DNA from: Coleofasciculus chthonoplastes F2-STO-03
Lineage (GTDB): Bacteria; Cyanobacteriota; Cyanobacteriia; Cyanobacteriales; Coleofasciculaceae
DNA length: 51,074 bases
Reading direction: 5' to 3'
NCBI GenBank assembly: GCA_040222015.1
Contig: JAVJWO010000111.1
Span: 1 to 51,074, forward strand
Shown here: positions 1,099 to 24,343 of the stretch, one piece after another
Layout: each line of letters opens with the position of its first letter
Numbering within the stretch: position 1 is the stretch's first letter
Notes under the pieces: generated by a model
Told to the model about the DNA's origin: nothing
The model's database searches: none
The model's input: the letters and a program-made list of their open reading frames with translations, nothing else
Program-made: the position numbers and the translations under genes

Positions 1099-3003
1099 TT
1101 AGGATGACTGATTTAGAAACGCCTCGATCGCGTCAGCAGCCAGATGGCTAATCGGCTTACCTTGACTGGCGGCGGCATCTTTGAGACGGCTGTACAGATC
1201 ATCGTTGAGGGAAATCCGATGTCGGGTTTTCTTAGTGGGTTTAGGGAAGACGTAATTGGCAGAATACTCCCGAATTGCATCAAATCCCACGCGATCGCAG
1301 AAATCACCGAAACTTTCCCCAAGTTCGCGCTGTTGCTTAAATTGCATGAACATGGGTTCGAGGAAGGATTCGAGTTCTTCAATCGGCAGTTTTTCGATAT
1401 AGGCTCGTGCTAACCTCGTTTGATCCGGTGAACCACCTAACCACATTTGATATTTCCCAGGCGCACTCCCCACAAATCCTAATTCTGCCATGTAAGGTCT
1501 GGCACATCCATTCGGACATCCCGTCATCCGGATGACAAAATGGTCATCCTTTAATCCCAACTTGTCCAACAGCGCCCGAATTCGTGCCGTAATCCCTGGA
1601 ATTGCCCGTTCTGATTCAGTAATCGCTAACCCACAGGTGGGAAGGGCGGGACAAGCCATGGAATAGCGGACTAGGGGTTCAATTCCCTCTGGGGTGATTT
1701 GAACTCCGTGTTGGTTGAGAATCTGTTCGATGGGTTGCTGCTGGTTCTTTTCAATCTCATACAGAATGGCATTGTGATTAGGTGTTAGCCGCATGGGTAG
1801 GTCAAATTGCTTGACAATTTCCCGTAAAGCTGTCTTTAACTGGAAGTTCCCCTCATCTTTGACTCGCCCATTCTCAATGGAAATGCCTAAAAATAACTTA
1901 CCGTCTCCTTGCTCGTTCCATCCCAGATAGTCTTTGTATTTAAAGGCAGGGAGAGGTTTGTAGGGGGCGATAGGCTTACCAAAGTAGTCTTCAACCTTAG
2001 CACGGAACTTATCAACGCCCCAATCATTGATCAGGTACTTCATGCGGGCATGACGACGATTTACGCGATCGCCATAGTCTCGCTGAGTTGCCACAATCGC
2101 TTTGATCAAATCAAAGATATCCTCTTTTGCCACATAACCAATCGGATCAGCCATACGGGCAAAGGTTTCTTCCTTATTATGGGTGCGCCCTAAACCACCA
2201 CCGGCGAGAACATTGAATCCTTCTAATTCTCCCTGCTGATTCATCATCACCACCAAGCTAACGTCTTGGGTGTAGAGATCAACGGAGTTATCGCCGGGAA
2301 CGGTAACACTACACTTAAACTTACGGGGCATATAGTGTTCCCCGTAAATCGGTTCTTCTTTATCCGCGAATATCGTACCGTTACCATTACGTTGACGCGC
2401 CGCTTTCACCTCTGGGGCTTCTTCAGCGCTAATTGCCTTTTCCCCATCCAGCCAAATTTCATAATAAGCGCCCGTCTGAGGGGTTAATAAATCGGCAATT
2501 TTATCGGCATACTCCCAGGCATATTGGTAATCAGGACGAGTCTTGAACGGCGCAGGAGGTGCCATAACGTTGCGATTTAAGTCCCCGCAAGCGCCCAAAG
2601 TTGAACCCAGATTGCGGACAATGGCAGCAATCGTTGCCTTTAAGTTCTTTTTGAGAATACCGTGAAGCTGAAACCCTTGGCGAGTGGTGACTCGCATCGT
2701 ATGGTTCCCGTATTGATCAGAAAGTTGATCGAGTGTCAGATAGAGTTGAGGGGGGATAAACCCGCCAGGAGAACGGGTTCGCAGCATGAACTGATAGTCT
2801 TTTTCTTGCCCTTTAACCCGATTATCGCGGTCATCTTGCTGGTAGGAACCATGAAATTTAAGAATTTGTACGGCATCACCACTGAAATGGGTGGTGTCTG
2901 AGAGCAACTCACTGGCTACGGGTTCGCGTAAGCAGTTACTGCGTTCTTTTATGCCTTCAAGTTTAGACGTTTTCTGTACAGAGGGATTCTGAGATACAAC
3001 CAT
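1099..3003 (-). CDS. sir: Ferredoxin-dependent sulfite reductase
   Basis: [34 protein letters not shown] and [13 protein letters not shown] siroheme/[4Fe-4S] motifs. Confidence 0.96.
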
Positions 3004-3111
3004 GGATGCTATAAGTCCGAACGGATCAGCTATATTACCGTAACTCTATGGGGATTACGTTGAATATTCTGATCCTAATACCTGTTTAATAAGTGTGGGC
3101 GCGACTTTGAT

Positions 3112-3525
3112 GTGACATCCTCCCACACCAAATCAAAGATTCTAGTGTGGGCTTCCAAGCTTCACAACTTGGATTTCCTGCTTTTTCCCCTTCGGCTACG
3201 CGGTAGCTGAGCCTGTCGAAGCTCAGGGGATTTCGACACTTACCTAGACTGAGACGAGTACATTTCAGTCCCCGGTAGACCGTCTGCACAGGCAGTTTCC
3301 ATTCCCGCTAGCCCAGCGGTACTAGTTAGTTTGATTTGCGTTGGTTGTTGTTATCGAATTCGTTACTCAACTCACGGTGCAGCAATTTCAACTAGCTTTG
3401 TGAGCAGATGTATCGAAGTCAATGTCAATTTACCACATTGAGGTTGGGGGAGTCCAGTGTATCCCAACGCCCAATTAAAAATTATGGCGTGGGTCTTATT
3501 GCTCCCCCAAAACCCACAAACAATT
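3112..3525 (-). mobile_element. Non-autonomous miniature IS200/IS605 element: left end plus tnpB 3'/omegaRNA-like region plus right end (left boundary approximate)
   Basis: Right end GTGACATCCTCCCACACC..AAGATT..GTGTGGGCTTCC matches 12078-12122. Segment 3443-3515 matches 13088-13155. No transposase or TnpB ORF. Confidence 0.8.
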
Positions 3526-3719
3526 AGATAAATTCCCGTACCCGTATAGAGGGCGATGGTATAGAGAACCGTTTCCCGGTCTGCTTTCATTGCCGCTTCA
3601 GGGGAAGCGTAACCGGGTCCACAACAAGCATGGGTAATAGGACAACGTTTGATTCTTGATTTTTGATTTTATCCGAATATTTGGCGCTAATTTTTCGCCC
3701 GATCTGCGATGATGGGCTT

Positions 3720-3747
3720 TTGCACGATGACGTGTAAGGTGTATAAT
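3720..3747 (+). promoter_or_regulatory. Candidate sigma70-type promoter of the hsdM operon (TTGCAC-N16-TATAAT)
   Basis: Perfect TATAAT at 3742-3747 with 8 nt between it and the hsdM ATG. Confidence 0.5.
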
Positions 3748-3755
3748 TTTTACTT

Positions 3756-5210
3756 ATGAGTACTGTCACCCATGATATTGTTGCCAAACTCTGGAATCTC
3801 TGCAATATCCTCAAAGACGACGGAGTAACTTACCATCAGTACGTGATCGAACTGACGTACCTGCTGTTTCTGAAGATGGCGAAGGAAACTGGCACCGAGC
3901 GTCAACTTCCGGAGGGTTATCGCTGGGATGATCTAGAGGGACAAACAGAGAAGCCCTTGGAATTCTATAAGGGGCTGTTGAGCTATTTAGGCAGTCACGG
4001 CTCTACGTTGGTTAAAGAAATTTTTACCGATGCCCATTCTTCTATTAAAAAGGACACGACACTTTCCACCCTAGTCACTGAGATTGACAAGCTTGACTGG
4101 TACAGTGCCAAGCGAGAAGGACTGGGTGATATCTACGAAGGGTTGTTAGAGAAAAACGCCAATGAAAAAAAGGCTGGGGCTGGGCAGTATTTTACGCCCC
4201 GTCCGCTAATTGACAGTATGGTACGTGTGATGCGTCCTACCCTGGATGACATCATTCAAGACCCTGCGGCGGGTACAGGTGGATTTTTAATTGCTGCCAA
4301 TCGCTATATCCGAGAACATAGTAATCCGGATGGTTGGACTAAAAAACAAAACAACAAATATCACGGCAATACCTTTTATGGCATGGAGCATGTCCAAGAC
4401 ACCCATCGTCTGGCATTAATGAATTTGATCCTCCATGGGCTAGATTCTGATCCGCAAGGTGCAGGCATAAAGTATGGTGATACGCTTTCACCGGATGGAC
4501 AAGCCTTACCGCAGGCTACACTGATTCTCACCAATCCACCATTTGGTAGCAAAAAAGGTGGAGGCTTGCCTAACCGTTCAGATTTTGAGTTTCCCACCAG
4601 CAATAAACAGTTTTGCTTCTTGCAACACATCTACCTGGGGTTGAAGCCCGGAGGTCGTGCTGCTGCGGTGTTTCCTGACAATGTGCTGTTTGAAAGCAAC
4701 GTGGGACGGCAGATCCGGGCTGCTTTGATGAACAAATGCAATCTGCATACAATTTTGCGTTTACCCTCTGGTATTTTCTATGCTCAGGGTGTTAAGACAA
4801 ACGTGTTATTTTTTACCCGTGGTAAGAAGCAAACAGGCAATACAAAAGAAGTGTGGGTATATGACCTGCGGACTAACACTCCCCAGTTTGGTCGGCGGAC
4901 ATCGCTAAGGCGTGAACATTTGGCTGAGTTTGAAGCCTTCTTTGGCGATGATCCATTGGGTGGTGCTGCTAGTCTGACACAGCGTACTGACACTGGAGAA
5001 GAAGGACGCTTTAGACGATTTTCCCGTGACTGGATTGCTGAACGTGACGACAATTTAGACATCTCCTGGCTCAAGGATGAACGGGAAGAGGAGAACGGCG
5101 AGTTACCTGAACCTGCAATCCTTGCCCAGGAAGCAATCAGTGAACTGGAAGCAGCAATAGCCGAGTTACAGGGCATTGTGCAAGAATTGGGAGAGGAAAT
5201 CAGTTTGTAG
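3756..5210 (+). CDS. hsdM: Type I restriction-modification N6-adenine methyltransferase subunit, EcoKI/type IA-like
   Basis: N-terminus DIVAKLWNLCNILKDDGV..LLFLKM..LPEGYRWDDL, GAGQYFTPR, motif I DPAAGTGGF, motif IV NPPF and LPSGIFYAQGVKTNVLFF. Confidence 0.96.
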   Translation: MSTVTHDIVAKLWNLCNILKDDGVTYHQYVIELTYLLFLKMAKETGTERQLPEGYRWDDLEGQTEKPLEFYKGLLSYLGSHGSTLVKEIFTDAHSSIKKDTTLSTLVTEIDKLDWYSAKREGLGDIYEGLLEKNANEKKAGAGQYFTPRPLIDSMVRVMRPTLDDIIQDPAAGTGGFLIAANRYIREHSNPDGWTKKQNNKYHGNTFYGMEHVQDTHRLALMNLILHGLDSDPQGAGIKYGDTLSPDGQALPQATLILTNPPFGSKKGGGLPNRSDFEFPTSNKQFCFLQHIYLGLKPGGRAAAVFPDNVLFESNVGRQIRAALMNKCNLHTILRLPSGIFYAQGVKTNVLFFTRGKKQTGNTKEVWVYDLRTNTPQFGRRTSLRREHLAEFEAFFGDDPLGGAASLTQRTDTGEEGRFRRFSRDWIAERDDNLDISWLKDEREEENGELPEPAILAQEAISELEAAIAELQGIVQELGEEISL

Positions 5211-5226
5211 GTACAGAGTGAGAACG

Positions 5227-5411
5227 ATGCAGAGCATCACACTAAAATCCCATATCGGTAGTGATGGTCTTTTGAAGGTTCATTTACCTGACATGAAAGA
5301 TACGGATATCGAGGTTGTCATTGTCTATCAAACAATACTGCTCAAAGGAGTTGAAGCTTCCTCTGTTTCACGGTTTTACGGATGTATTCAAGATGACTCA
5401 TTTATTAGACA
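5227..5411 (+). pseudogene. Small antitoxin-like gene, 3' end lost
   Basis: MQSITLKSHIGSDGLLKVHLP..DIEVVIVYQ..FYGCIQDDSFIRH resembles small cyanobacterial partners of PIN toxins and runs directly into toxin fragments. Confidence 0.6.
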
Positions 5412-5551
5412 TTGTCAAGGCAGAACTCTGCTTTGGAGCGATGAAAAGTGGAATGGCTCTGAAAAATAATCTAATGCTAGTGATACATAATACAAGAGAC
5501 TTTGGTTCTGTGGATGGGTTACACATGGAAGATTGGGAGGTTGAAGTGTGA
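5412..5551 (+). pseudogene. VapC/PIN toxin remnant with internal deletions
   Basis: IVKAELCFGAMKS (mid-PIN motif) is joined directly to ALKNNLMLVIHNTRDFGSVDGLHMEDWE (PIN C-terminus). The N-terminus is missing. Confidence 0.75.
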
Positions 5552-8500
5552 ATGAGCTTCCAGAAGGTTGGGCAAGTACATTTTTCGGCGAAATTAACTG
5601 TTTTTCGCCAATAACGCTTAATCCTTCACAATTTGGTGATGAGATATTTGAGTTATTCAGTGTGCCAAGTTTTCAAAACCGTAAACCTGAAATTGTTAGA
5701 GGAAAGGAAATAGGTTCAACAAAACAAATTGTTGAATATGATGATGTCCTTGTCTGCAAGATTAACCCAAGGATTAATCGTGTGTGGCAGGTTACACCGA
5801 AGCGGGAATATCAACAGATTGCATCCTCAGAGTGGATTGTTATGAGATCACCTGAACTGGATGCTAGTTATTTGACGCACTACTTTTCAAGTGCCGAATT
5901 TCGCAAAATGATGTGTGCTGAAGTTTCAGGTGTTGGGGGATCTCTCACACGGGTACAGCCAAAGCGCGTTGCAACATTTCCAGTAAAAATTGCTCCTCTT
6001 AATGAGCAAAAACGTATTGCTGATAAGCTCGATGCATTGTTGGCGCGGGTGAATGCGTGTCGCGATCGCCTAGAGCGTGTATCGTGCATTCTTAAAGATT
6101 TCCGACAAGCTGTTATCGCTGATGCAACATCAGGCAAGTTAACACAGAACTGGCGCACTGAACATATAAATGTCTCTTGGAATAGAGAAATTGAAGATGA
6201 ATTAACCAAGTTTTGCTTTACCGATGCACCTTGCTTTGGTGATTTTAGATTTCCAGTAAGTTGGAATGTAGCTCGATTAGGAGAGATTGCAGAAATTGTT
6301 GGTGGAATCACAAAAGATTCAAAGAAGCAAGATCCAGCAGATGAGGAATTGCCTTATTTAAGAGTTGCTAATGTGCAACGAGGTTTTTTCGATTTAAGTG
6401 AGATAAAAACTATTCGAGTACCCCAGCGACGCATTGAAGAATTGTTGCTCAGTCGAGGGGATATCCTTTTTAACGAAGGTGGTGATATTGATAAGCTTGG
6501 TAGAGGCTGGGTATGGGACGGTGAAATTGAACGCTGTACATTTCAAAATCACGTATTCAGAGTCCGTCTTAAAAACGAACTTTTTGAACCAAAATTCTTT
6601 TCTTGGTATGGCAATTTACGGGGAGCCGCCTACTTTCTTTCTGTTGGCAAACAGACGACAAATCTAGCTTCAATCAATAAATCTCTTTTATCTGCATTAC
6701 CGATAGTTATTCCTCCGGCAGAAGAACAGAGTGAAATTGTTCGCCGTATAGAGGTATTATTTGCTTACGCCGATCGCATTGAATCTCGCTATCAAAATGC
6801 TCTAACACGAGTCGAACAGTTAACACCTACTTTGTTGTCTAAAGCATTTCGTGGTGAATTAGTGTCACAAGATCCCGATGATGAACCAGCCTCTGTACTG
6901 CTAGAGAGAATAAAATCTGAAAAAAGGCGCATGGACTCTAAGCGAAAGACCACACGAACTGTCCGATCTAAAACCAAAGAAAAGCCAACAAGCTCTATGC
7001 CAAAATCATTAGATGATTGTGTAAAAGCTCTTCGCTCTGCATTTCAACAATTGGGAGGTCAAACAGATGCTGACAAGCTTTTTGACCAAGCCGGATTCCA
7101 AGCAGAAGAAGTTGTGCAGTTTTATGAGGCGTTACAGGCAACTCCTGAAGTGCGCGTTGCTTTCGAGAAATCAACGCAAGAATACTCTGTACAAACACAA
7201 AGCTCAATTGCCAAGGGTGGAAACGATCACCCTTCACAGAAAGGCTCTTTTCGATTGATAGAGCTTTGGTTAGAGGATTTCAAGAATCTGACCGATTATA
7301 CAGTACGCTTCGACCCCTCTCACAGCATAGATATCGTTCTTGGCTGGAACGGTACTGGAAAATCCAACCTTTTTGAAGCCTTGGTCATTATCTTTCGTGA
7401 CCTGTACAAATGGTGGGAAAAGAATCAGTGGACAGAGAACCCCATGAAAGGTTATCGACTCCGTTATGTAATGAACGAAAAAATAATAGAGGTTTCTTGG
7501 CAACCAGGTGCGATGAAGCGACCTAAGTTGAAGATGGGTACACTTCAAGCAGGAAAAGACGAGCCTGAGCAATTGAAAAGTATTGCCCGCCAAAAACTCT
7601 TATTACCTCGATTTATATTTGGTTACTATTCAGGACCGACAAATCGCTTGGCTGATCATTTCTTGCCAATGAATCAAGCTCACTACAATAGCTTGCGAGA
7701 TGCAAAATCTGATGATCCAGAGACTCTTGCGAACCTTTTGGAGAAGCGCCGCTTTTTCTGTGCCGAAAACCACCATGCCAAATATGTTTTACTAGCCTTT
7801 TTTCATAAGGAAGATCCTGCTATCAGCCAATTTCTTGAAGAGAGACTGCGAATTGTTGGCTTCGAGTCGGCATTGTTCGTTATTCGTAAGCCTCGCTGGG
7901 CAAAATCTGGGAATGCTGCTGAATTTTGGGGGGCGCGTGGTGTTATGCGACGTGTCATGGAGCGACTCCGGCGATTTGCGATTGCCCCAATGGTGGTTAA
8001 ACAGACTGTGAGAGAGGGTTATAGATCAAGGAGTGAGGAACATTACTACTTCTTCCTGCCTGATTTGCAGAGCTTGCACGCCTTTGCCGCTGAATACCAA
8101 GATGCCCGGACATTTTTCCTAGCTCTTGAAAGTATAGATTTTTCTGAATTGATCTATGACCTAAACATTCAGGTTCGTGTAGAGGCGACGAAAACAGAGC
8201 AAGTGGCAATTACATTTCATGAATTAAGTGAGGGTGAGCAACAATTACTCATGGTATTGGGCTTAATGCGTTTTACAAAATCTCATCAGTCTTTAGTGTT
8301 GCTTGACGAACCGGACACGCATCTCAATCCCCATTGGAGCGTAGATTACCTGAAACTCCTCACTCGTGTAATGAGCGAGAATTCGGGTGAGTCGGAAGAA
8401 CAACAAACAAGCCAAATTCTCATGTCAACTCATGATCCTTTGGTCATAGCAAGTCTCTTGAAGGAGCAAATTCACCTTCTCAAACGGGATTGGCAAACAG

Positions 8501-8898
8501 GTGCTTGTAAATGGGATCAGCCAACTGTTAATCCGCGCGGACTTGGATTCACTGGCATCCTTACGAGTGAGATGTTTGGGATGCGGAGTGATCTGGATGA
8601 GGAAACGCTTGCCGACCTAGATACAAAGGTTCGTCTAGTTGCTAAGGAAGATTCTCTAACTCCAGAGGAAGCTATAGAACTCGAAGAAGTCAACAAACGT
8701 TTAGAAGATGCGGGATTTCAAAAGGCTTTCAGTGATCCATACTATGCAGCTTTTATCCGTGCCTGGAGTCGTAGATACAGTGACTTGATGAGTGGTACTC
8801 GATTCCTCAGTCCAGATCAACGAGAAGAGGTTGATCAGATTGCTGGTGAAGTTCTCGAAGAAATCTTAGCCGAATTGCAGGCAGAGGTCGCTAACTAA
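5548..8898 (+). CDS. hsdS: Fusion of a type I R-M specificity subunit (two TRDs) and a C-terminal ABC/AAA_21-like ATPase (PtuA-like)
   Basis: HsdS part: ELPEGW, PLNEQKRIADKLD..SGKLT, PPAEEQSEIVRRIE..LLSKAFRGEL..DEPASVLLERI. ATPase part: Walker A GWNGTGKS (7342-7365), signature LSEGEQ, Walker B LVLLDEPD, H-loop STHDP. One uninterrupted 1116-aa ORF. Confidence 0.93.
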   Translation: MNELPEGWASTFFGEINCFSPITLNPSQFGDEIFELFSVPSFQNRKPEIVRGKEIGSTKQIVEYDDVLVCKINPRINRVWQVTPKREYQQIASSEWIVMRSPELDASYLTHYFSSAEFRKMMCAEVSGVGGSLTRVQPKRVATFPVKIAPLNEQKRIADKLDALLARVNACRDRLERVSCILKDFRQAVIADATSGKLTQNWRTEHINVSWNREIEDELTKFCFTDAPCFGDFRFPVSWNVARLGEIAEIVGGITKDSKKQDPADEELPYLRVANVQRGFFDLSEIKTIRVPQRRIEELLLSRGDILFNEGGDIDKLGRGWVWDGEIERCTFQNHVFRVRLKNELFEPKFFSWYGNLRGAAYFLSVGKQTTNLASINKSLLSALPIVIPPAEEQSEIVRRIEVLFAYADRIESRYQNALTRVEQLTPTLLSKAFRGELVSQDPDDEPASVLLERIKSEKRRMDSKRKTTRTVRSKTKEKPTSSMPKSLDDCVKALRSAFQQLGGQTDADKLFDQAGFQAEEVVQFYEALQATPEVRVAFEKSTQEYSVQTQSSIAKGGNDHPSQKGSFRLIELWLEDFKNLTDYTVRFDPSHSIDIVLGWNGTGKSNLFEALVIIFRDLYKWWEKNQWTENPMKGYRLRYVMNEKIIEVSWQPGAMKRPKLKMGTLQAGKDEPEQLKSIARQKLLLPRFIFGYYSGPTNRLADHFLPMNQAHYNSLRDAKSDDPETLANLLEKRRFFCAENHHAKYVLLAFFHKEDPAISQFLEERLRIVGFESALFVIRKPRWAKSGNAAEFWGARGVMRRVMERLRRFAIAPMVVKQTVREGYRSRSEEHYYFFLPDLQSLHAFAAEYQDARTFFLALESIDFSELIYDLNIQVRVEATKTEQVAITFHELSEGEQQLLMVLGLMRFTKSHQSLVLLDEPDTHLNPHWSVDYLKLLTRVMSENSGESEEQQTSQILMSTHDPLVIASLLKEQIHLLKRDWQTGACKWDQPTVNPRGLGFTGILTSEMFGMRSDLDEETLADLDTKVRLVAKEDSLTPEEAIELEEVNKRLEDAGFQKAFSDPYYAAFIRAWSRRYSDLMSGTRFLSPDQREEVDQIAGEVLEEILAELQAEVAN

Positions 8899-9809
8899 TG
8901 CGCTGGGTTGATATCGACCAATTACAGCTTCCCGATGGATGGCAGGCACGAGCTGATAAAGCTCTTAATGAGCTACGACAAGAAATAGAACGTGCGGAAC
9001 AAGAAGCTCGCTCCACTGGCAAAGACATTCGTGTCGCAAGAAGGAAGGCAATTTCGGAAGGATTAGATAAGAGTTCACGCAAAAAAAATTGGCGAGAGTT
9101 AGCTCCTTATTTAGCGAAACTCCGTCATGGCAAATGTTGGTATTCAGAGAGTTTAAATCCAGGTTCTAATAAGGACGTTGATCACTTTCGTCCTAAAAAT
9201 CGAGTCTGTGAAGATCCTGACCACGAAGGCTATTGGTGGCTTGCATTTGATTGGCGCAACTATCGCTACTCTTGTCAATGGTGCAATCAGCGTCGTGTTG
9301 ATACAGCAAACAGTACAGATGGAGGAAAGTGGGATCAATTTCCAGTTTCTGGAACTTTCAGAGCTAGGCAAGAAGGAGAAAATTTTGAAATGGAAGACGT
9401 TGATCTTCTTGATCCAATCGATCCAGAAGACTGGAAGCTACTCACTTTTCGCCCTGATGGTCAGCCTACTCCTGCACAACCTCAGGGTACAAGAGAGCAT
9501 AAAAGAGCGGATATTTCTATTCAGATCTATCATCTTCATTACCAAGAATTTGTCCGTGAGCGCAAAAGTTTGGCTACAAGAATTCGTTTGTTGATAGAAC
9601 GTATGGAAATTTTATATTCAAAAATAACAGATCCTACAATGAGAAAACTTTATAAAGATAGCCAAAAAGAACTATTTCGGCTTATTGATCGAGACTCTGA
9701 ATATTCGTCAGCAGCCTTAGCTTATGCAAGGTTTGAAGTTTACAAAATGGAACGTGGTCATCAGGTAAAACGAGAATGGCTCGAAAAAATTTTGAATTTA
9801 AGTCCGTAA
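8898..9809 (+). CDS. HNH endonuclease, Septu PtuB/retron-effector-like
   Basis: KCWYSE..DVDHFRPK..GYWWLAFDWRNYRYSCQWCN..KWDQFPV..LLDP. Its ATG overlaps the upstream TAA (TAATG). Confidence 0.88.
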   Translation: MRWVDIDQLQLPDGWQARADKALNELRQEIERAEQEARSTGKDIRVARRKAISEGLDKSSRKKNWRELAPYLAKLRHGKCWYSESLNPGSNKDVDHFRPKNRVCEDPDHEGYWWLAFDWRNYRYSCQWCNQRRVDTANSTDGGKWDQFPVSGTFRARQEGENFEMEDVDLLDPIDPEDWKLLTFRPDGQPTPAQPQGTREHKRADISIQIYHLHYQEFVRERKSLATRIRLLIERMEILYSKITDPTMRKLYKDSQKELFRLIDRDSEYSSAALAYARFEVYKMERGHQVKREWLEKILNLSP

Positions 9810-10056
9810 GTATAAAATATAACTGGAGAGCGATGCAAGGAAAGTCCTATTTTGACTGGCGCTTCAACTTGGCTGGCTTCGGTGTGCGCCAAAATCATTT
9901 TCACGGCGATAGCGCAGCCGCACCCACAACACTTGGGTAATCTGTCCTTTTTGTTCTTTGGTTAGGACATTGTAAACTGACTTAATAGTTCAATTGTACT
10001 ACAAAGGTGGTAGTCCCACGAGCTATCTTTTTTTGTCAATGTGTCAGTTCTGAAAT

Positions 10057-10530
10057 CTACGGATTCTTATGTTCGCAAGCGCCAATACTCACCCAGGTAC
10101 TGGCACCATCTTGATAGTGTTCTTTTTTCCAGATGGGAGCGTTATGTTTTAAAGTATCAATGGCATATTTACAAGCGGCAAAGGCTTCGGAACGATGGGG
10201 ACAGCCAATGGCAACTAAGACGCTAATTTCGCCAATTTGTAGACGTCCGATGCGATGATGAATAACGACGCGATTGACATCAGCCCAAGTCTGTCGAATG
10301 TCGTGGGCAATGGTGGCAAAGACGCGCAATGCCATGGGTTCGTAGGCTTGATATTCCAGGGACACCACGGGTTTGTCGTCGGTTTGGTTACGGACGGTGC
10401 CACTCATGACGACGACAGCACCATTGGCGGGATCATCGGCGAGGGTATAGACATCGGCGAGGGATAGGGGGGCAAAGGTGATGGCAAAGTTATCATGGGT
10501 TTGCAGTTTTTGGGGAGAGGCTAGAGACAT
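10057..10530 (-). CDS. moaE: Molybdopterin synthase catalytic subunit
   Basis: GAVVVMSGTVRN, LEYQAYEPMA, HHRIGRLQIGE and LKHNAPIWKKEH. Confidence 0.96.
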   Translation of the reverse strand: MSLASPQKLQTHDNFAITFAPLSLADVYTLADDPANGAVVVMSGTVRNQTDDKPVVSLEYQAYEPMALRVFATIAHDIRQTWADVNRVVIHHRIGRLQIGEISVLVAIGCPHRSEAFAACKYAIDTLKHNAPIWKKEHYQDGASTWVSIGACEHKNP

Positions 10531-12081: not shown

Positions 12082-13165
12082 CATCCTCCTACACCGAATC
12101 GAAGATTACGGTGTAGGCTTCCTTACCTCACGATAAGGCATTGCTCCCCTACGCCATTTATCTAGGCTCATCGCCCCCGACACCTCGACTTGAGAGCCAA
12201 TTTCTTGCTTTTCCAGAGTCCCTGGATACGTTTCTAGTCCACGATTGAGCAGTTCTTGAGCCGAAGCGATATCTCTGTCCACTTCTTGGAACGCTTCTGT
12301 TTCTTCGCTAACCGACGTTGTAGCACTTTAAGCCGACTTTGTTCGGTTTTGAAGAATTTGCGTCCAGGCTCAGAGTAGCCATCGCTGGTTGCCAAGTAGG
12401 AAAGCAGTCCCACATCAACTCCAATGGCATGACCATGAGGGGAAGGTTCTGGAATCTCGACATCTGAGTACAGACAGATAACTGCAAACCATCCCATCGC
12501 CTTTTTGACCATCCGCACTTGTTTGACTACAAACCCGTCAGGGATAGGTCGATGCAGGTTGATTTCGACTTTCCCTAATTTGGGAAGTTGAATATGCCAA
12601 CCTGTAATCGGGTTGGTTTTGAACTGCGGGAATACCATCGACTTCATTTGTCCTACTTTCTTGAAGCGAGGAAAACCATATCCCCTCTGCCTGAAAAAGT
12701 CCCAAGCGTCATGCAACCTTCTAATGTTAGTCTGCAAAACTTGGGAGGGAACAGATTTGAGCCGAGGAAATTCTTTCTTGGCTGATGGTAGATTGTTTTG
12801 TTGTTGGTGGTAACTAGGGAATGGGTAGTCAGCACTCATAATGTACTCAGATTCCAAGCTACACCGATCTATTGGACACTTGCGAGAAGCAATCCAATCC
12901 TTGAGTTCCCGTAACCCATAGTTATAGGACACCCGCAGCGTTTCCAACCACTCATCGAGAAGTTGGGTTTGCTGTTGGTCGGGTTTGATACGGTAGGTGT
13001 AGTTTAGAATCATGACTAGATTCTACCACTCTTTTCTCAAAATGGTAAACGTCAACTTAGGGGGCATCGAACCCCGCTCAATTGACTTGGGGAGTGAAGG
13101 CATCCCAACGCCAAATCAGAGATTATGGCGTAGGACTTATAGCTCCCCAAACCCCTCGTCAGTTA
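12078..13165 (-). mobile_element. Non-autonomous IS200/IS605-family element carrying a truncated tnpB (left boundary approximate, 13160-13185)
   Basis: Right end ...GGAGGATGTCAC with a subterminal hairpin, a related left-end hairpin at about 13108-13131, and no tnpA. Confidence 0.88.
12234..13013 (-). pseudogene. tnpB: TnpB RNA-guided nuclease, internally deleted
   Basis: YTYRIKP HTH start, GFPRFKK, RuvC-I AIGVDVGL and LQRRLAKKQKRSKKW are present. RuvC-II, the zinc finger and RuvC-III are absent (259 aa). Confidence 0.88.
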
Positions 13166-20660: not shown

Positions 20661-22352
20661 ATGAATTTACCTTTTACTCATGCTAACCGCAAAACAGCAC
20701 AGATTCATGCTGCCATATTCTTAGCCAGTGTAATTACAGTAATTGCGGCACTGACGCTGCTGATATTTTTGGCTGATACAGTGGCGACGACAACGATTCC
20801 CTTCGATAGCGATGAAGCAGAACACGCGGTTGATGCTTGGCAAGTTTACCATAGCCTAATTAGGCTTAATTTAGGAGACTTGTTCCAAGCGATTACCAGC
20901 CAGTCCTTCTACCCATTTATCAACTCCTTATTCGTCGCGATCTCGTACTTGTTGGCTGGAGCTAGTGTCGTCTCCAGTCGTATACCATCAGTATTATTCT
21001 TCGCACTTACAGTGTTTGGCTTAGGCTGGCTCACCTTTAGGATTGCTCAACGACAAGAAGACGCCGTGAACCCAGCCGATCAATGGTTTCCCTGGACAGG
21101 TGCTATTTTCGCGATCGCCCTCGCTATTACCAGCCCGATTTTTGTCACCAATGCCGTCCTTTGTATGCTGGAAATGACGGGTGCGATGCTAGCCGTTCTG
21201 CTAATACTGATTGGGGATCAGATTGATCAAATCCGCCGCCAACGTTCACGCCTGATCGGGATTGCGATCGCGGCTTTCGTAGTCATGGCAATTGTGTTAA
21301 CCAAATACTCCTTTGGCTTATTCTACATACCTGGACTACTCGCCGCCTTAGTCACCGCCACCAAACCTGGGAAATTGGGTCGTCAAGTCTGGCTAGAAAC
21401 AACTGTAGTCCTGGGTATCTACGCCGCTGTCTTGGTTTTATGGATTCTGGTCACGGATCGACCAACAATGTGGATGTTCTTTACCAATCACCCCAGCTAC
21501 GTGGATGTTTGGTCGGTCGAGAATTTTCTCTACTACCCCATTGTCTGGCTTAACGAATACTCAACCAAAAAGCCAGTCGGACTTCTTTCCCTCACCTTCG
21601 CCGTCATCGGCGCTGTTCGCTATTGGAAACATCTACCGGTGCGGATTGGGGTTTGGTCTGTTTTGGCTGCAACCGTCGTACTCGGGATTTCAACGACCAA
21701 CTCTCAACGACATATACTGGTTATCGCACCTGTAATCTGGATGCTGGCTGGACTTGGACTCGTCAAGGTATTGCAATGGCTTAATCGTAGAATAAAGACT
21801 CGCCCCTTCGTTGTCGGTACAATCGGATTGATTTGGGCTTTACTGATTGTTTGTGCCATAGAACCTGCTTCACAGCTACACGCTCGATTGATAAAAGTGT
21901 TTGAAGGGTTACCCGTCTATGCCGAAATGCAGGAGTTCGGACTGCAAGGCGTTGACCTAAATCAACCTGTTCTGCTACTAGGATTCAATAATGATCAATA
22001 TAATCTATTGGCTATTCGCTGGCGTGCCGCCGTACTTTCTGGCAAACGCTTAGAGGATCTCAACATTGATCAGTTTCCCTTTGAACAGCGTGAAATTTAT
22101 TTGCGACGCACAGGTCGCAAGCCTCAGAAAGTTAGCGTTGATCCCAGTTTTCCCCGCCAACCCTTGGATGCTATTCTCGATAGTGGCTATTATGCTTACA
22201 TTATTGAGACTCGTAATCTGCAAGAGCAATCCAGCATTCTCCATTCTGAGCAACATTCACTCGACAATTATCCTACTGTTGCCCAGCAATTCTATCCCTG
22301 GTTAGTCACGGTCTACAAGATAGAAAATCAAGACCATTCGTTTAATTCGTGA
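20661..22352 (+). CDS. Putative GT-C fold membrane glycosyltransferase, divergent
   Basis: DSDEAEH after TM1, FYPF and LTKY, multi-TM with a soluble C-terminal domain. Confidence 0.7.
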   Translation: MNLPFTHANRKTAQIHAAIFLASVITVIAALTLLIFLADTVATTTIPFDSDEAEHAVDAWQVYHSLIRLNLGDLFQAITSQSFYPFINSLFVAISYLLAGASVVSSRIPSVLFFALTVFGLGWLTFRIAQRQEDAVNPADQWFPWTGAIFAIALAITSPIFVTNAVLCMLEMTGAMLAVLLILIGDQIDQIRRQRSRLIGIAIAAFVVMAIVLTKYSFGLFYIPGLLAALVTATKPGKLGRQVWLETTVVLGIYAAVLVLWILVTDRPTMWMFFTNHPSYVDVWSVENFLYYPIVWLNEYSTKKPVGLLSLTFAVIGAVRYWKHLPVRIGVWSVLAATVVLGISTTNSQRHILVIAPVIWMLAGLGLVKVLQWLNRRIKTRPFVVGTIGLIWALLIVCAIEPASQLHARLIKVFEGLPVYAEMQEFGLQGVDLNQPVLLLGFNNDQYNLLAIRWRAAVLSGKRLEDLNIDQFPFEQREIYLRRTGRKPQKVSVDPSFPRQPLDAILDSGYYAYIIETRNLQEQSSILHSEQHSLDNYPTVAQQFYPWLVTVYKIENQDHSFNS

Positions 22353-24343
22353 ACGGAATCATCAATATGCTGGCTTGCTTACCTTTACTCTCATTATTGC
22401 TTCTACTTCTAATTTTCCAATATCCAGGTCAAGACTGGCGGGGTTCTGTCTTATCCGCAGCGATTGTCTGGGGAGTATTGATCACGGTATTGACTGAGAC
22501 GTTAAGTCTATTTAGAGTCTTGACATTTAGTTCAGTGTTGGTCTTGTGGCTGATTACAGATATCGCACTCTTGTTTATCTATTATCGACTGGTTAAGAGA
22601 GGAAAGCGATCGCTAACTTTCCCTGAACGCCCCAAACTCACCCCAGTCTCACTGGTTTTGCTGGGCGGTGTCGTCTGTATCGTGGCGACAGTGGGTTTAA
22701 TGGCTGTGGTAGCGCCGCCGAATAATTGGGATTCTATGACCTATCATCTGGCACGGGTGGTTCATTGGATACAAAATCGCAGTGTTGCCCATTATCCCAC
22801 CTACTATTCGGCTCAATTAGTTCACCCCCCATTTGCCGAATTTGTGATCATGCACTTACAGATTCTCAGTCGGGGCGATCGCTTGGCTAATTTGGTGCAA
22901 TGGTTAAGTATGATTGGCAGCATTATTGGCGTATCCCTAATTGCTAAACAACTGGGTACAGATCAACGGGGACAAATTTTCGCAGCGATTTTCTGCGCTA
23001 CGATTCCGATGGGAATCCTGCAAGCGTCCAGCACTCAAAATGACTATGCTGTCGCTTTTTGGCTAGTTTGTCTTGCCCATTATATTCTGTTGGCATTGCC
23101 CGAAAAAAAGATTCCGCTTCCCTTAGTTCTAAGTATTGGCGCTAGCTTAGGACTGGCTGTTTTTACCAAGAGTTCAGGCTATATCTATGCCTTTCCTTTA
23201 ATGGTTTGGTTTTTCCTGGCGAAACTAAACCGCCTACGCTGGAAATTATGGAAGCCAATAGGTATCATTACTCTTATATTCTTAAGTCTGAACTTAGGTC
23301 ATTATTTACGCAACTTTGACTTATATAGAAATCCCATATCGGTAGCCGAATATTCAGCCGACTATAAAATAGAAGTGTACAGCCTGCCGACATGGATCTC
23401 CAATATTATCCGGAATCTTTCTCTCCATGTTGATATCGTTAGATACCTAGGACTACAGGATTTTATTACGCCGATTACGGGGATTAGCCACAAATTAATC
23501 AGTATAATTCATTCCGTTTTGGGCGTTGACATGAATGATCCGCGAACGACCTGGCCCCTAAACTCCTATACAGTTCCGGGTCTATCGTTTGATGAAAATG
23601 TTGCCGGAAATCCCCTGCATCTATTACTCATTGCTTTAGCGATTATAGTTTTTGTGTTTAACAAAAAATTGAGGACAAAAAACAATGTAATCGGTTATGT
23701 ATTGGCATTAATTGGTGGCTTCTTACTCCTTTGTTGGATGCTAAAAATTCAGCCTTATCAAAGTCGCCATCATCTTTCGCTATTTGTCCTATTTTCGTCT
23801 TTTGTTGGTTTAGTTTTTAACAAAAGCTGGAATCGTCATGTTTTAATAATTATGGCTGTGATTATGCTCGTAGCATCAATTCCCTTTGTGGTTGGTAATA
23901 AATACCGACCGATTGCTGCCGAGCAAAATATATTTAATACCAGCCGCAATGAACTGTACTTTGCTAATCGTAAATATCTCAAAGAACCCTATTTCGCGAC
24001 CGTTGATTTTCTCAAAAAACAAAGCTGTGAAACGATTGGGTTATCTTTAGGAGGTACAGCCGTACCATCGGGGACGTATTGGGAATATCCATTTTGGGTA
24101 CTTTTACAGGAAAATAATCCTCAAACTATTCGGGTTGAGCATATTTTACATCCGGATAATCGCTCGAATGCCAAATCGAAGATATATCCCCACAATAATT
24201 TTAATCCTTGTGCCATTATTGCGATTAGAAGTAGTAAAGAGGAACTCGTTAAAGAAATGGTGGTTCAGAGTAGCACTTATGTAAGTGCTTGGTCAGCTAA
24301 CTCAGACCAGATAAATGTGTTAGTTAAAGATAGGGGAGAGTGA
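22349..24343 (+). CDS. Putative GT-C fold membrane glycosyltransferase
   Basis: PPNNWDSMTYHLARV, QASSTQND and FTK, multi-TM. The start could be the ATG at 22367. Confidence 0.8.
   Translation: MNGIINMLACLPLLSLLLLLLIFQYPGQDWRGSVLSAAIVWGVLITVLTETLSLFRVLTFSSVLVLWLITDIALLFIYYRLVKRGKRSLTFPERPKLTPVSLVLLGGVVCIVATVGLMAVVAPPNNWDSMTYHLARVVHWIQNRSVAHYPTYYSAQLVHPPFAEFVIMHLQILSRGDRLANLVQWLSMIGSIIGVSLIAKQLGTDQRGQIFAAIFCATIPMGILQASSTQNDYAVAFWLVCLAHYILLALPEKKIPLPLVLSIGASLGLAVFTKSSGYIYAFPLMVWFFLAKLNRLRWKLWKPIGIITLIFLSLNLGHYLRNFDLYRNPISVAEYSADYKIEVYSLPTWISNIIRNLSLHVDIVRYLGLQDFITPITGISHKLISIIHSVLGVDMNDPRTTWPLNSYTVPGLSFDENVAGNPLHLLLIALAIIVFVFNKKLRTKNNVIGYVLALIGGFLLLCWMLKIQPYQSRHHLSLFVLFSSFVGLVFNKSWNRHVLIIMAVIMLVASIPFVVGNKYRPIAAEQNIFNTSRNELYFANRKYLKEPYFATVDFLKKQSCETIGLSLGGTAVPSGTYWEYPFWVLLQENNPQTIRVEHILHPDNRSNAKSKIYPHNNFNPCAIIAIRSSKEELVKEMVVQSSTYVSAWSANSDQINVLVKDRGE

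Follow-up and report, generated by a model that had tools for sequence, protein, structure and literature searches.

Positions 1–51,074 of contig JAVJWO010000111.1 of the cyanobacterium Coleofasciculus chthonoplastes F2-STO-03 (assembly GCA_040222015.1), called here the window, contain three genes that join a type I DNA methyltransferase to a Septu effector pair. The first gene encodes the modification subunit HsdM, the second a specificity subunit HsdS fused to the ATP-binding cassette (ABC) type ATPase PtuA, and the third the predicted HNH nuclease PtuB (Table 1). The original prediction, made from the DNA sequence alone, described a candidate new defence system. The fusion is real and the locus is without hsdR, the gene for the restriction subunit, but the system is not isolated. 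It is a derived branch of a large family of ptuAB pairs in type I restriction-modification (R-M) loci. The fused operon is a widespread and apparently undescribed offshoot of Septu pairs nested in such loci.

The hsdM, HsdS::PtuA and ptuB operon

Open reading frame (ORF) calling of the window gives 484 amino acids (aa) for HsdM, 1116 for the fusion (5548–8898, forward strand) and 303 for PtuB. The fusion starts with GTG, 8 nt 3′ of a GGGAGG, and its N-terminus MNELPEGW agrees with the N-termini of aligned relatives. The ATG of ptuB shares one base with the fusion stop codon TAA; the junction sequence, GCTAACTAATGCGC, confirms the TAATG overlap reported earlier. All three genes lie on the forward strand, co-oriented as in the original prediction, but a spacer of 337 nt with a decayed small ORF, missed at that time, parts hsdM from the fusion, so that only the fusion and ptuB are translationally coupled in the window.

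HsdM matches the Pfam families N6_Mtase (6e-74) and HsdM_N and the PADLOC model MTase_I PDLC03026 (4e-202), and its nearest solved structure is the M subunit of EcoKI (2ar0_A, 7e-148). Motif I and NPPF are both present, and the EcoKI match upholds its earlier description as type IA-like. The fusion carries on a single ORF Methylase_S (2e-18, two stretches), AAA_21 (8e-18), SMC_N and AAA_15. PADLOC recognizes aa 1–546 as Specificity_I PDLC03127 (3e-108) and aa 569–1110 as PtuA PDLC00293 (4e-162, profile positions 2–524 of 527), in agreement with the reading of a full HsdS with two target recognition domains (TRDs) in frame with an ABC ATPase. The four ATPase motifs, GWNGTGKS (aa 599), LSEGEQ (aa 893), LLDEPD (aa 918) and STHD (aa 960), are intact, as had been noted, and are kept in relatives. 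The third protein matches no Pfam family and is assigned by PADLOC to PtuB PDLC00330 (3e-81).

A search of solved structures with single sequences returns no match for PtuB and only weak matches for the PtuA part. Profiles of relatives match 9n69_A (1e-12) and 8ee4_A (2.4e-8) for PtuA, and 22bv_F (4.9e-6), a retron I-A PtuB (1e-5) and 8ee7_C (0.029) for PtuB. The AlphaFold model of fusion aa 470–1116 has a predicted local distance difference test score (pLDDT) of 79. Its best Foldseek matches are all PtuA chains, from 9n69_B (1.3e-13) to 8eea_C (7e-11), with 8ee4_D also matched, and the sequence identity to solved PtuA is 12–14%. For the PtuB model (pLDDT 82) the top 11 matches are all PtuB chains, yet weak (5e-3 to 1.9). 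By PADLOC, structure-profile search and fold, the pair consists of true PtuA and PtuB relatives, and the earlier call of a Septu-like effector stands. NCBIfam gives sub-threshold matches only, including the retron Ec78 PtuA and PtuB models and TIGR04435 (‘restriction system-associated AAA family ATPase’), the second-best match on the fusion (3e-38, 131.7 bits against a cut-off of 300 bits). The name of this model shows that annotation already recognizes a restriction-linked ATPase family; the fusion is under the cut-off and so not a member by the curated rule.

Table 1. Features of the operon, with positions in the window
Feature	Position	Strand	Evidence or remark
hsdM, EcoKI-like type I N6-methyladenine (m6A) methyltransferase (predicted)	3756..5210	+	motif I DPAAGTGGF aa 169, motif IV NPPF aa 260
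Variable spacer: decayed small ORF 5227-5469 and ribosome-binding site of the fusion	5211..5547	+	missing or exchanged in near-identical strains
HsdS TRD1, fusion aa 1 to ~151, hypervariable	5548..6000	+	alignment; replaced in runs X1, X4, X5 and X8
HsdS central conserved region (CR1)	6001..6074	+	~93% identity kept in X1 between two replaced TRDs
HsdS TRD2, hypervariable	6075..6789	+	best Methylase_S stretch aa 236-420; replaced by 621 letters in X1
HsdS distal conserved region (CR2), then basic predicted-disordered tether	6790..7008	+	model residues 1-15 pLDDT <50
Four-helix domain, fusion aa 488-547, predicted adaptor docking on PtuA	7009..7188	+	pLDDT ~90; complex prediction
PtuA ABC-type ATPase, fusion aa 569-1116	7252..8898	+	GWNGTGKS, LSEGEQQ, LLDEPD, THD; PDLC00293
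ptuB HNH nuclease (predicted), CWYSE ... DHFRPK ... CNQRR	8898..9809	+	PDLC00330, profile, fold

Fused and unfused relatives

At least 399 proteins of 613–1953 aa match the fusion at E ≤ 1e-3 in a protein database search in which scoring was limited to the 8000 candidates sharing most words. Among the 120 best of these, 114 contain both PF01420 and PF13304, and most are 1065–1160 aa long. A scan of species-representative genomes finds the fusion at 35 loci (designated below by L numbers). The hosts belong to Cyanobacteriota, Acidobacteriota, Dormibacterota, Verrucomicrobiota, Planctomycetota, Lentisphaerota, Desulfobacterota and Alphaproteobacteria, at least eight phyla in all. Other fusions of HsdS to AAA_21, for which a search had been proposed, thus exist, and the fusion is not unique to this assembly. 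Between phyla, the PtuA parts of fused loci are 66–95% identical with all motifs kept. Within the phylum of the window only 3 of 401 sampled genomes carry the fusion, its own genome included, and the other two come from one genus; the fusion is therefore rare and patchy there. The phage collection searched with the linker-plus-PtuA part contains no relative.

The junctions at 7252 (linker to PtuA) and 8898 (fusion to ptuB) are crossed by contigs 96–99% identical to the window with no indels listed. These contigs come from one DNA run and three RNA libraries independent of the window assembly. Together with the relatives and the 35 loci, they rule out an assembly artefact or a lost stop codon.

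The gene context is well conserved. ptuB lies 3′ of the fusion in 32/32 loci whose contig continues (tblastn and our own profiles), and hsdM adjoins on the same strand in 31 of the 35; of the four exceptions, contig ends truncate three, and the other is degraded. These context counts depend partly on small self-built profiles. The order is hsdM-fusion-ptuB in the window and in the 8 cyanobacterial loci with visible hsdM, and fusion-ptuB-hsdM in the other 23 fused loci with adjacent hsdM.

Some copies are broken (L024, L026, L029, L030, L032, L034 and L041). A pair of ORFs in Kovacikia, considered as a natural split form, also reads as a broken copy: one piece of 552 aa ends at fusion aa 548, the other of 519 aa begins at aa 598, and ~50 residues are missing between them. 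The seven broken loci and the Kovacikia pair would fit a decaying R-M remnant, that is, an orphan methylase beside an independent Septu pair with the fusion accidental. We consider such decay very improbable. An undamaged fused ORF is present in 23 genome loci and in the window, the motifs are kept and the clade spans at least eight phyla. Moreover, five of the seven broken loci (L029, L030, L032, L034 and L041) carry one project's label, and their breaks may in part be assembly errors.

As originally predicted, hsdR is absent from the locus: Pfam scans of the 38 window ORFs that reach 110 aa give no HsdR-type match, and our own HsdR profile is also blank across the 51-kb window. This profile was built from 5 sequences and run on ORFs of at least 80 aa; L038 and L040 are included and match by construction. 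Among fused loci, L038 has a complete hsdR (ResIII and EcoEI_R_C), L027 the C-terminal end of hsdR at the contig start and L036 a 210-aa HsdR remnant (2975–3604) immediately 5′ of the fusion. With the profile, hsdR is not seen in 29 of the 32 fused loci holding ptuB, several of which have little flank. Of 44 flank ORFs with 550 aa or more, 40 were screened for hsdR with Pfam; the four left aside were duplicates (three L019 copies of L015 ORFs and one from L011). Another 14 hand-picked ORFs were screened as well. The synteny of hsdM, fusion and HNH gene without hsdR thus recurs; homologous loci do not always carry hsdR with separate genes, a pattern that would have spoken against the original prediction. 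Judged from gene content, this distribution shows that hsdR is dispensable for the fused system.

The genome of the window (99.99% complete, with the ptuB of this locus as its sole ptuB) was searched for a cognate hsdR, as had been suggested. It has three intact hsdR genes, each a few kb from its own, unrelated hsdM, and those HsdM proteins are at most 31% identical to the HsdM of the locus. A fourth type I locus (L048, contig C4, 5524–10088) is decayed. These genes bear on the idea that the locus is a classical type I enzyme dependent on HsdR supplied in trans by another locus, with PtuAB a mere linked passenger. The three hsdR genes could serve in that way, and TIGR00348 finds a credible hsdR in 16 of 25 host genomes. 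In 9/25 it finds none: isolate G003 has zero matches, two genomes have weak partial matches only (best 6.5e-16 and 4.7e-11) and six more are without a match at E ≤ 1e-20. Type I families do not cross-complement, which counts against borrowing, as do the low identity of the neighbouring HsdM proteins and the nine host genomes without hsdR. The fusion and its conserved adaptor domain argue for functional coupling. Borrowing in trans is accordingly a very unlikely account of the locus.

Several other genes are found in and near these loci. The decayed L048 contains a 375-aa HsdM-N/HsdS chimera and the C-terminal half of HsdR with an embedded 671-aa protein (Schlafen/AlbA_2, HATPase_c_4 and Fic-like_C), which is a further instance of nesting within type I loci. 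In L036, an Opitutus locus, a NERD-domain protein (9465–10367) begins at the hsdM stop codon, with a WYL regulator upstream; the NERD protein may be an added effector. In L038 a gene with HTH and Peptidase_M78 domains (ImmA/IrrE-like, 4292–5386) lies between hsdR and the fusion, and an ImmA/IrrE gene and a HigB toxin gene flank the hsdR-bearing plasmid cassette L053 (NZ_CP098525.1, 11564–13054). The ImmA/IrrE-like gene beside hsdR-bearing loci is possibly a recurrent regulator. A 1113-aa protein with HEPN_Swt1 and DUF499 is encoded directly 5′ of the frameshifted triad in L029 (6651–9989). In L015 and L019, which are 100% identical though from different metagenome-assembled genomes (MAGs), type III-like Mod (N6_N4_Mtase) and Res (ResIII and RE_endonuc) genes are located 3.4 kb upstream of the triad (1960–6546).

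Unfused relatives of PtuA occur on plasmids and in metagenomes. All five plasmid records have hsdS directly upstream of ptuA. In four of them (Vibrio, Pseudoalteromonas, Pantoea and Roseomonas) hsdM, hsdS and ptuA are found in either order with hsdR not in view; ptuB is annotated in three of these four, and the Roseomonas plasmid has an unannotated gap at the expected place. The fifth, NZ_CP098525.1, has hsdR, an Abi gene, hsdM, hsdS, ptuA and ptuB. PADLOC assigns the cassettes L049 and L050 to the sub-models found in the window, PDLC00293 (1e-207 and 3e-196), PDLC00330/343 and PDLC03026. Just upstream of these cassettes are a SoFic protein (L049, NZ_CP012741.1, 4058–5134, 1e-109) and an FRG-domain protein (L050, NZ_CP045722.1, 4707–6107, PDC-S15 match 6e-98).

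The metagenome scan, with unfused relatives ~40% identical to the window PtuA as queries, returned 80 loci, in which genes were identified with our own profiles; these loci are kin, and no statistical test was applied to them. hsdS is immediately 5′ of ptuA in 74/80. The other six comprise three cut at the contig start, one fused ORF of 1157 aa, one with hsdM in between and one without a recognizable hsdS. ptuB is 3′ of ptuA in 73 loci, and the remaining seven contigs stop within 96 nt. hsdM is visible in 65 and hsdR in 37 of the 80. The order hsdR-hsdS-ptuA-ptuB-hsdM is found in 26 loci and hsdR-hsdM-hsdS-ptuA-ptuB in five. Two unfused loci have other arrangements: in L111 (3183–7710) hsdR is followed directly by ptuA with no recognizable hsdS, and in L096 (286–9019) hsdR-hsdS-hsdM-ptuA-ptuB is followed by an hsdM fragment. 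By gene order, the unfused PtuAB subfamily is essentially always nested in type I loci, mostly complete ones, and the fused clade is, on the same grounds, the part of this family in which hsdR has mostly gone.

The link between HsdS and PtuA has three parts in the structure model. CR2 is followed by a basic low-confidence tether, a confident four-helix domain (aa 488–547) and a second low-confidence tether leading to PtuA. The four-helix domain matches no Pfam family and is covered by the PADLOC model PDLC03127 (571 positions, Specificity_I). Unfused HsdS ORFs of the family are long (median 589 aa stop-to-stop, n = 64), and a profile of the domain matches their C-terminal end in 11 of the 80 metagenome loci, some with hsdR. 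The domain is also visible in L040, an unfused locus with hsdR in which the hsdS stop codon is followed 4 nt later by the ptuA start in the same frame. BLASTP of the domain against plasmid HsdS gives a weak match for L049 (5e-4) and none for L050, and a protein atlas search with the domain returns two unnamed clusters at 0.80, within chance. When the domain is given as a chain of its own and folded with the PtuA part, complex prediction scores the pair at 0.73 against 0.07 for the best control, graded as ‘supports binding’. In a calibration that is rough, since our own alignment was used, solved pairs reach 0.73 in 116 of 157 cases and mismatches in 2 of 215. At least 60% of contacts are shared between runs, and the partner pLDDT is 68 or higher. 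The predicted contacts are between fusion aa 506–550 and aa 774–873, a beta-rich insert of PtuA. We know of no similar complex that has been solved. From the model we infer that the fusion may have covalently fixed an older contact between HsdS and PtuA.

Conservation and exchange of the methyltransferase module

In a midpoint-rooted tree, whose long branches were flagged by the tool, the fused PtuA parts group together as one clade (support 100/100) on a long stem that separates them from the unfused proteins. One branch within it joins L038, which has hsdR, to L036 with its remnant; another, lacking hsdR, comprises the alphaproteobacterial loci; and in the third L027, again with hsdR, is the sister of a group of 15 rows that lack it. 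The Cyanobacteria nest inside this group beside a Geobacteraceae locus. This topology is consistent with a single fusion and several later losses of hsdR. The system probably descends from ptuAB pairs that lay between the hsdS and hsdM genes in complete type I operons, with hsdS and ptuA fused and hsdR lost in this lineage.

The cyanobacterial loci differ from their nearest non-cyanobacterial relative, L022, mainly in the methyltransferase. Identity to L022 is 40% for HsdM and 36–49% for the HsdS conserved regions (CR1 36%), and 74% for PtuA and 64% for PtuB; between L022 and L015 it is 84% for HsdM and 78% for PtuA. The central conserved stretch of the cyanobacterial HsdS is also shorter. Since HsdM and the conserved regions are far more diverged than PtuA and PtuB, the M and S-core module was exchanged in Cyanobacteria with the PtuA fusion kept.

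Catalytic motifs are kept throughout the fused loci. Motif counts exclude rows with stops or shorter than 440, 1050 or 280 aa. HsdM motif I is found in 30/30 (two with one conservative change) and NPPF in 30/30. In PtuA, Walker A is kept in 23/24 (one has GAGKS), and SEGEQQ, LLDEPD and THD are each kept in 24/24. PtuB has DH[FY]RPK in 28/28.

The TRDs are the variable part. Their median pairwise identity is 20%, against 69% for PtuA (276 pairs), and they are exchanged singly between loci with 92–95% identical PtuA. L010 and L011 (PtuA 95%) share 28% in TRD1 and 17% in TRD2. L011 and L016 (PtuA 94%) keep TRD1 at 95% with TRD2 at 18%, and L009 and L016 (PtuA 93%) keep TRD2 at 98% with TRD1 at 18%. 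TRD2 of the window is 87–89% identical to that of L008 and L011, and TRD1 differs. In the DNA run X1, from a ~99% identical strain, hsdM shows 13 differences in 1544 nt and CR2-PtuA-PtuB 21 in 3062 nt, with both TRDs replaced (by 550 and 621 other letters) and CR1 between them kept. The RNA-library contigs have TRD2 as in the window and a different TRD1. These patterns suggest that selection on methylation and specificity persists without hsdR.

The spacer between hsdM and the fusion is likewise variable. In run X1 the segment 5243–6001 is exchanged for the 550 other letters, and the RNA-library contigs carry other letters from 5412 to 5509. In four Microcoleus loci hsdM and the fusion overlap directly, with no spacer. 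The small spacer ORF (80 aa) has no Pfam match; its 3′ end resembles the tail of a PIN-type toxin, and it may be a toxin-antitoxin remnant. A small cassette may once have entered the operon and left the spacer as its scar.

By Pfam, the operon is flanked by the core genes sir (NIR_SIR) and moaE, as first noted, and these two genes are not adjacent in the 3 same-family genomes compared. The remaining window consists of housekeeping genes (LysE, sir, moaE, sepF, proC, transporters, Raf1 and others) and one fragment of IS605 OrfB, a 259-aa ORF at 12237–13013 on the reverse strand with HTH_OrfB_IS605 and partial OrfB_IS605 that represents a truncated IS605/TnpB-type gene. At 20661–24340 on the forward strand, two adjoining ORFs (563 and 664 aa) beside glycosyltransferase genes match nothing in Pfam at 1e-3 except a weak DUF2142. 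A reverse transcriptase (RT) domain is absent from all 38 window ORFs scanned with Pfam; the msr-msd noncoding RNA was not searched for. Promoter and terminator counts in 3000–10200 are not above those in shuffled sequence. Contigs of the three RNA libraries span the operon, although such libraries can contain DNA, so this is no proof of expression.

Possible control of PtuAB by the methyltransferase core

The operon shares features with several known systems. Septu of E. coli (8EE4/8EEA) has the same translationally coupled pair of ABC ATPase and HNH protein, matched by PADLOC over full length. Septu forms a PtuA6:PtuB2 assembly and has anti-phage activity. It can stand alone as a two-gene system, whereas here PtuA has a whole HsdS at its N-terminus and unfused kin lie beside hsdS. 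Type I-A retrons (Ec78/Eco7 and Ec83) likewise subordinate PtuAB to a separate sensor, and they give the best structural matches (9n69, 9l7p and 9nnb); their sensor is RT with multicopy single-stranded DNA (msDNA), in contrast to the DNA methyltransferase core found here. With classical type I enzymes of the EcoKI family the locus shares the HsdM likeness, a two-TRD HsdS with conserved regions and TRD shuffling, but the motor-nuclease HsdR is missing and HsdS is extended by the adaptor domain and PtuA. In MADS, the methylation-associated defence system (PMC13662399), ATPase-nuclease modules likewise take the place of HsdR beside an m6A methylase and a subunit resembling HsdS. It has eight genes, and its NCBIfam models score far under their cut-offs here (MAD2 91 against 720, MAD3 21.4 against 420 and MAD5 42.8 against 400 bits).

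PrrC in EcoprrI (type Ic) offers a parallel in layout. This effector too has an ABC-type ATPase and is encoded inside an hsd operon, an arrangement shared by the unfused relatives. The nesting is complete in the hsdR-bearing relatives; in the window the hsd genes flank the effector and hsdR is missing. PrrC is physically dependent on the R-M proteins, as PtuA is predicted to be here. PrrC carries a C-terminal anticodon-nuclease domain; here nothing but PtuA occupies the C-terminal part of the fusion, the HNH protein PtuB is separate, and the coupling is covalent through HsdS. The preprint of Payne et al. (10.1101/2024.01.29.577857) describes embedded genes as frequent in type I R-M systems; it finds PrrC there in almost every case and reports Septu as embedded in Hma. 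The available text of PMC8565338, PMC11555353, PMC12255303 and PMC13764132 contains both ‘Septu’ and ‘HsdS’ and draws no link between them. A literature full-text search, with the figures and supplements of Payne et al. outside its scope, yielded no published account of an HsdS::PtuA fusion or an HsdR-less M-S-PtuA-PtuB cassette.

We tentatively favour, at somewhat less than even odds, a methylation-gated, HsdR-independent defence in which the M2S core controls PtuAB. One assembly would contain an M2S-type m6A methyltransferase with HsdS covalently bound to PtuA, which would hold PtuB in the manner of Septu; the C-terminal helical domain of HsdS is predicted to provide a second, docking contact with PtuA. 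HsdM would mark the bipartite sites of the host. When M2S meets an unmethylated site on incoming DNA, this state would be relayed through the HsdS-PtuA link and switch on PtuA-PtuB, which would replace HsdR as effector. The outcome may be nicking or cutting of nearby DNA, or loss of tRNA-Tyr and abortive infection, as is reported for Septu and retron-Eco7. Methylation gating is favoured because the HsdM motifs, the TRD turnover and the exchange of the M and S module persist in lineages without hsdR. Sequence evidence leans to this action and cannot decide between it and a guard function.

As a guard with integrated bait, similar to PrrC or PARIS, the M2S core would be bound by DNA mimics such as Ocr or ArdA, or by Stp-like peptides, and this would free PtuAB; methylation would not be the trigger. 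The common form of the family, ptuAB nested in complete type I operons including that of plasmid NZ_CP098525.1, speaks for a guard, and the nesting in hsdR-bearing loci therefore makes a PrrC-like origin more plausible than the original prediction implied. The layout is that of PrrC in EcoprrI, where the R-M proteins hold PrrC inactive and T4 Stp frees it (10.1101/2024.01.29.577857). PARIS, a related pair of ABC ATPase and nuclease, is triggered by Ocr (PMC12839542), and retron I-A holds PtuAB by its sensor module and then releases it (PMC12819146). The abortive action on tRNA-Tyr reported for PtuAB, with no more than DNA nicking seen in vitro, would also suit a guard, as would the repeated loss of hsdR with the rest kept, since a bait no longer needs to restrict. 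However, a bait needs its fold and not its catalysis, yet motif I and NPPF are kept in all 30 HsdM proteins across deep HsdR-less clades. A bait would also gain nothing from new specificities, yet the TRDs turn over between ~99% identical strains. We regard the guard as the main rival, though rather unlikely.

Both triggers may act together: unmethylated sites and anti-restriction proteins would each disturb a resting, product-bound M2S and so activate PtuAB. Each line of evidence fits one half of this scheme, and the hsdR-bearing L027 and L038 show the fusion working beside a classical restriction subunit. The scheme is less parsimonious and appears improbable.

Several points weigh against methylation gating. 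Many of the genomes without hsdR are MAGs, and the cut-off of E ≤ 1e-20 used for six of the nine kept any weaker matches off the list. The genome of the window has three other type I systems, and help from them in trans is unlikely but conceivable. The docking of the four-helix domain is model confidence and not a measurement. hsdR lies directly upstream in 32 of 39 unfused loci with an informative upstream flank, as with PrrC, which suits an ancestral role as guard better than one in restriction; in the other seven it is missing although 2.5 kb or more of flank is to spare. The methyltransferase motifs and the TRD turnover could be kept for reasons besides self-protection. Finally, characterised PtuAB effectors are described as abortive toxins that act on tRNA-Tyr in vivo, with no more than DNA nicking seen in vitro (PMC12819146, PMC13096335 and PMC12673091).

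The most far-reaching reading is a new class of R-M enzyme, in which the M2S core reads the methylation of bipartite sites and PtuAB replaces HsdR, the superfamily 2 translocase-nuclease. We consider this rather unlikely at present. ATP-driven dimerization of the PtuA heads could unite two site-bound M2S modules, and PtuB would then cut. PtuA acts as dimers in the solved Septu and retron complexes; a fused dimer would thus carry two M2S modules, and two-site sensing is conceivable as a speculation.

Annotation pipelines, to judge from the PADLOC result, most likely label the locus as an incomplete type I R-M system plus Septu and overlook the coupling. The operon adds a third sensor state for the Septu effector pair: none in Septu, RT-msDNA in type I-A retrons, and now a covalently attached type I methyltransferase core. 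The relatives form a natural series, from unfused with hsdR through fused with hsdR and fused with an hsdR remnant to fused without hsdR. This series makes it testable whether effectors embedded in R-M systems guard or extend the system, and what happens once the guarded nuclease is lost. If PtuAB indeed replaces HsdR, this would be a translocase-free route from a type I methylase to a restriction enzyme, reprogrammable by TRD swaps. If the system is a new R-M class, it would provide host-controlled modification without DNA translocation, with an embedded back-up effector taking over the restriction system.

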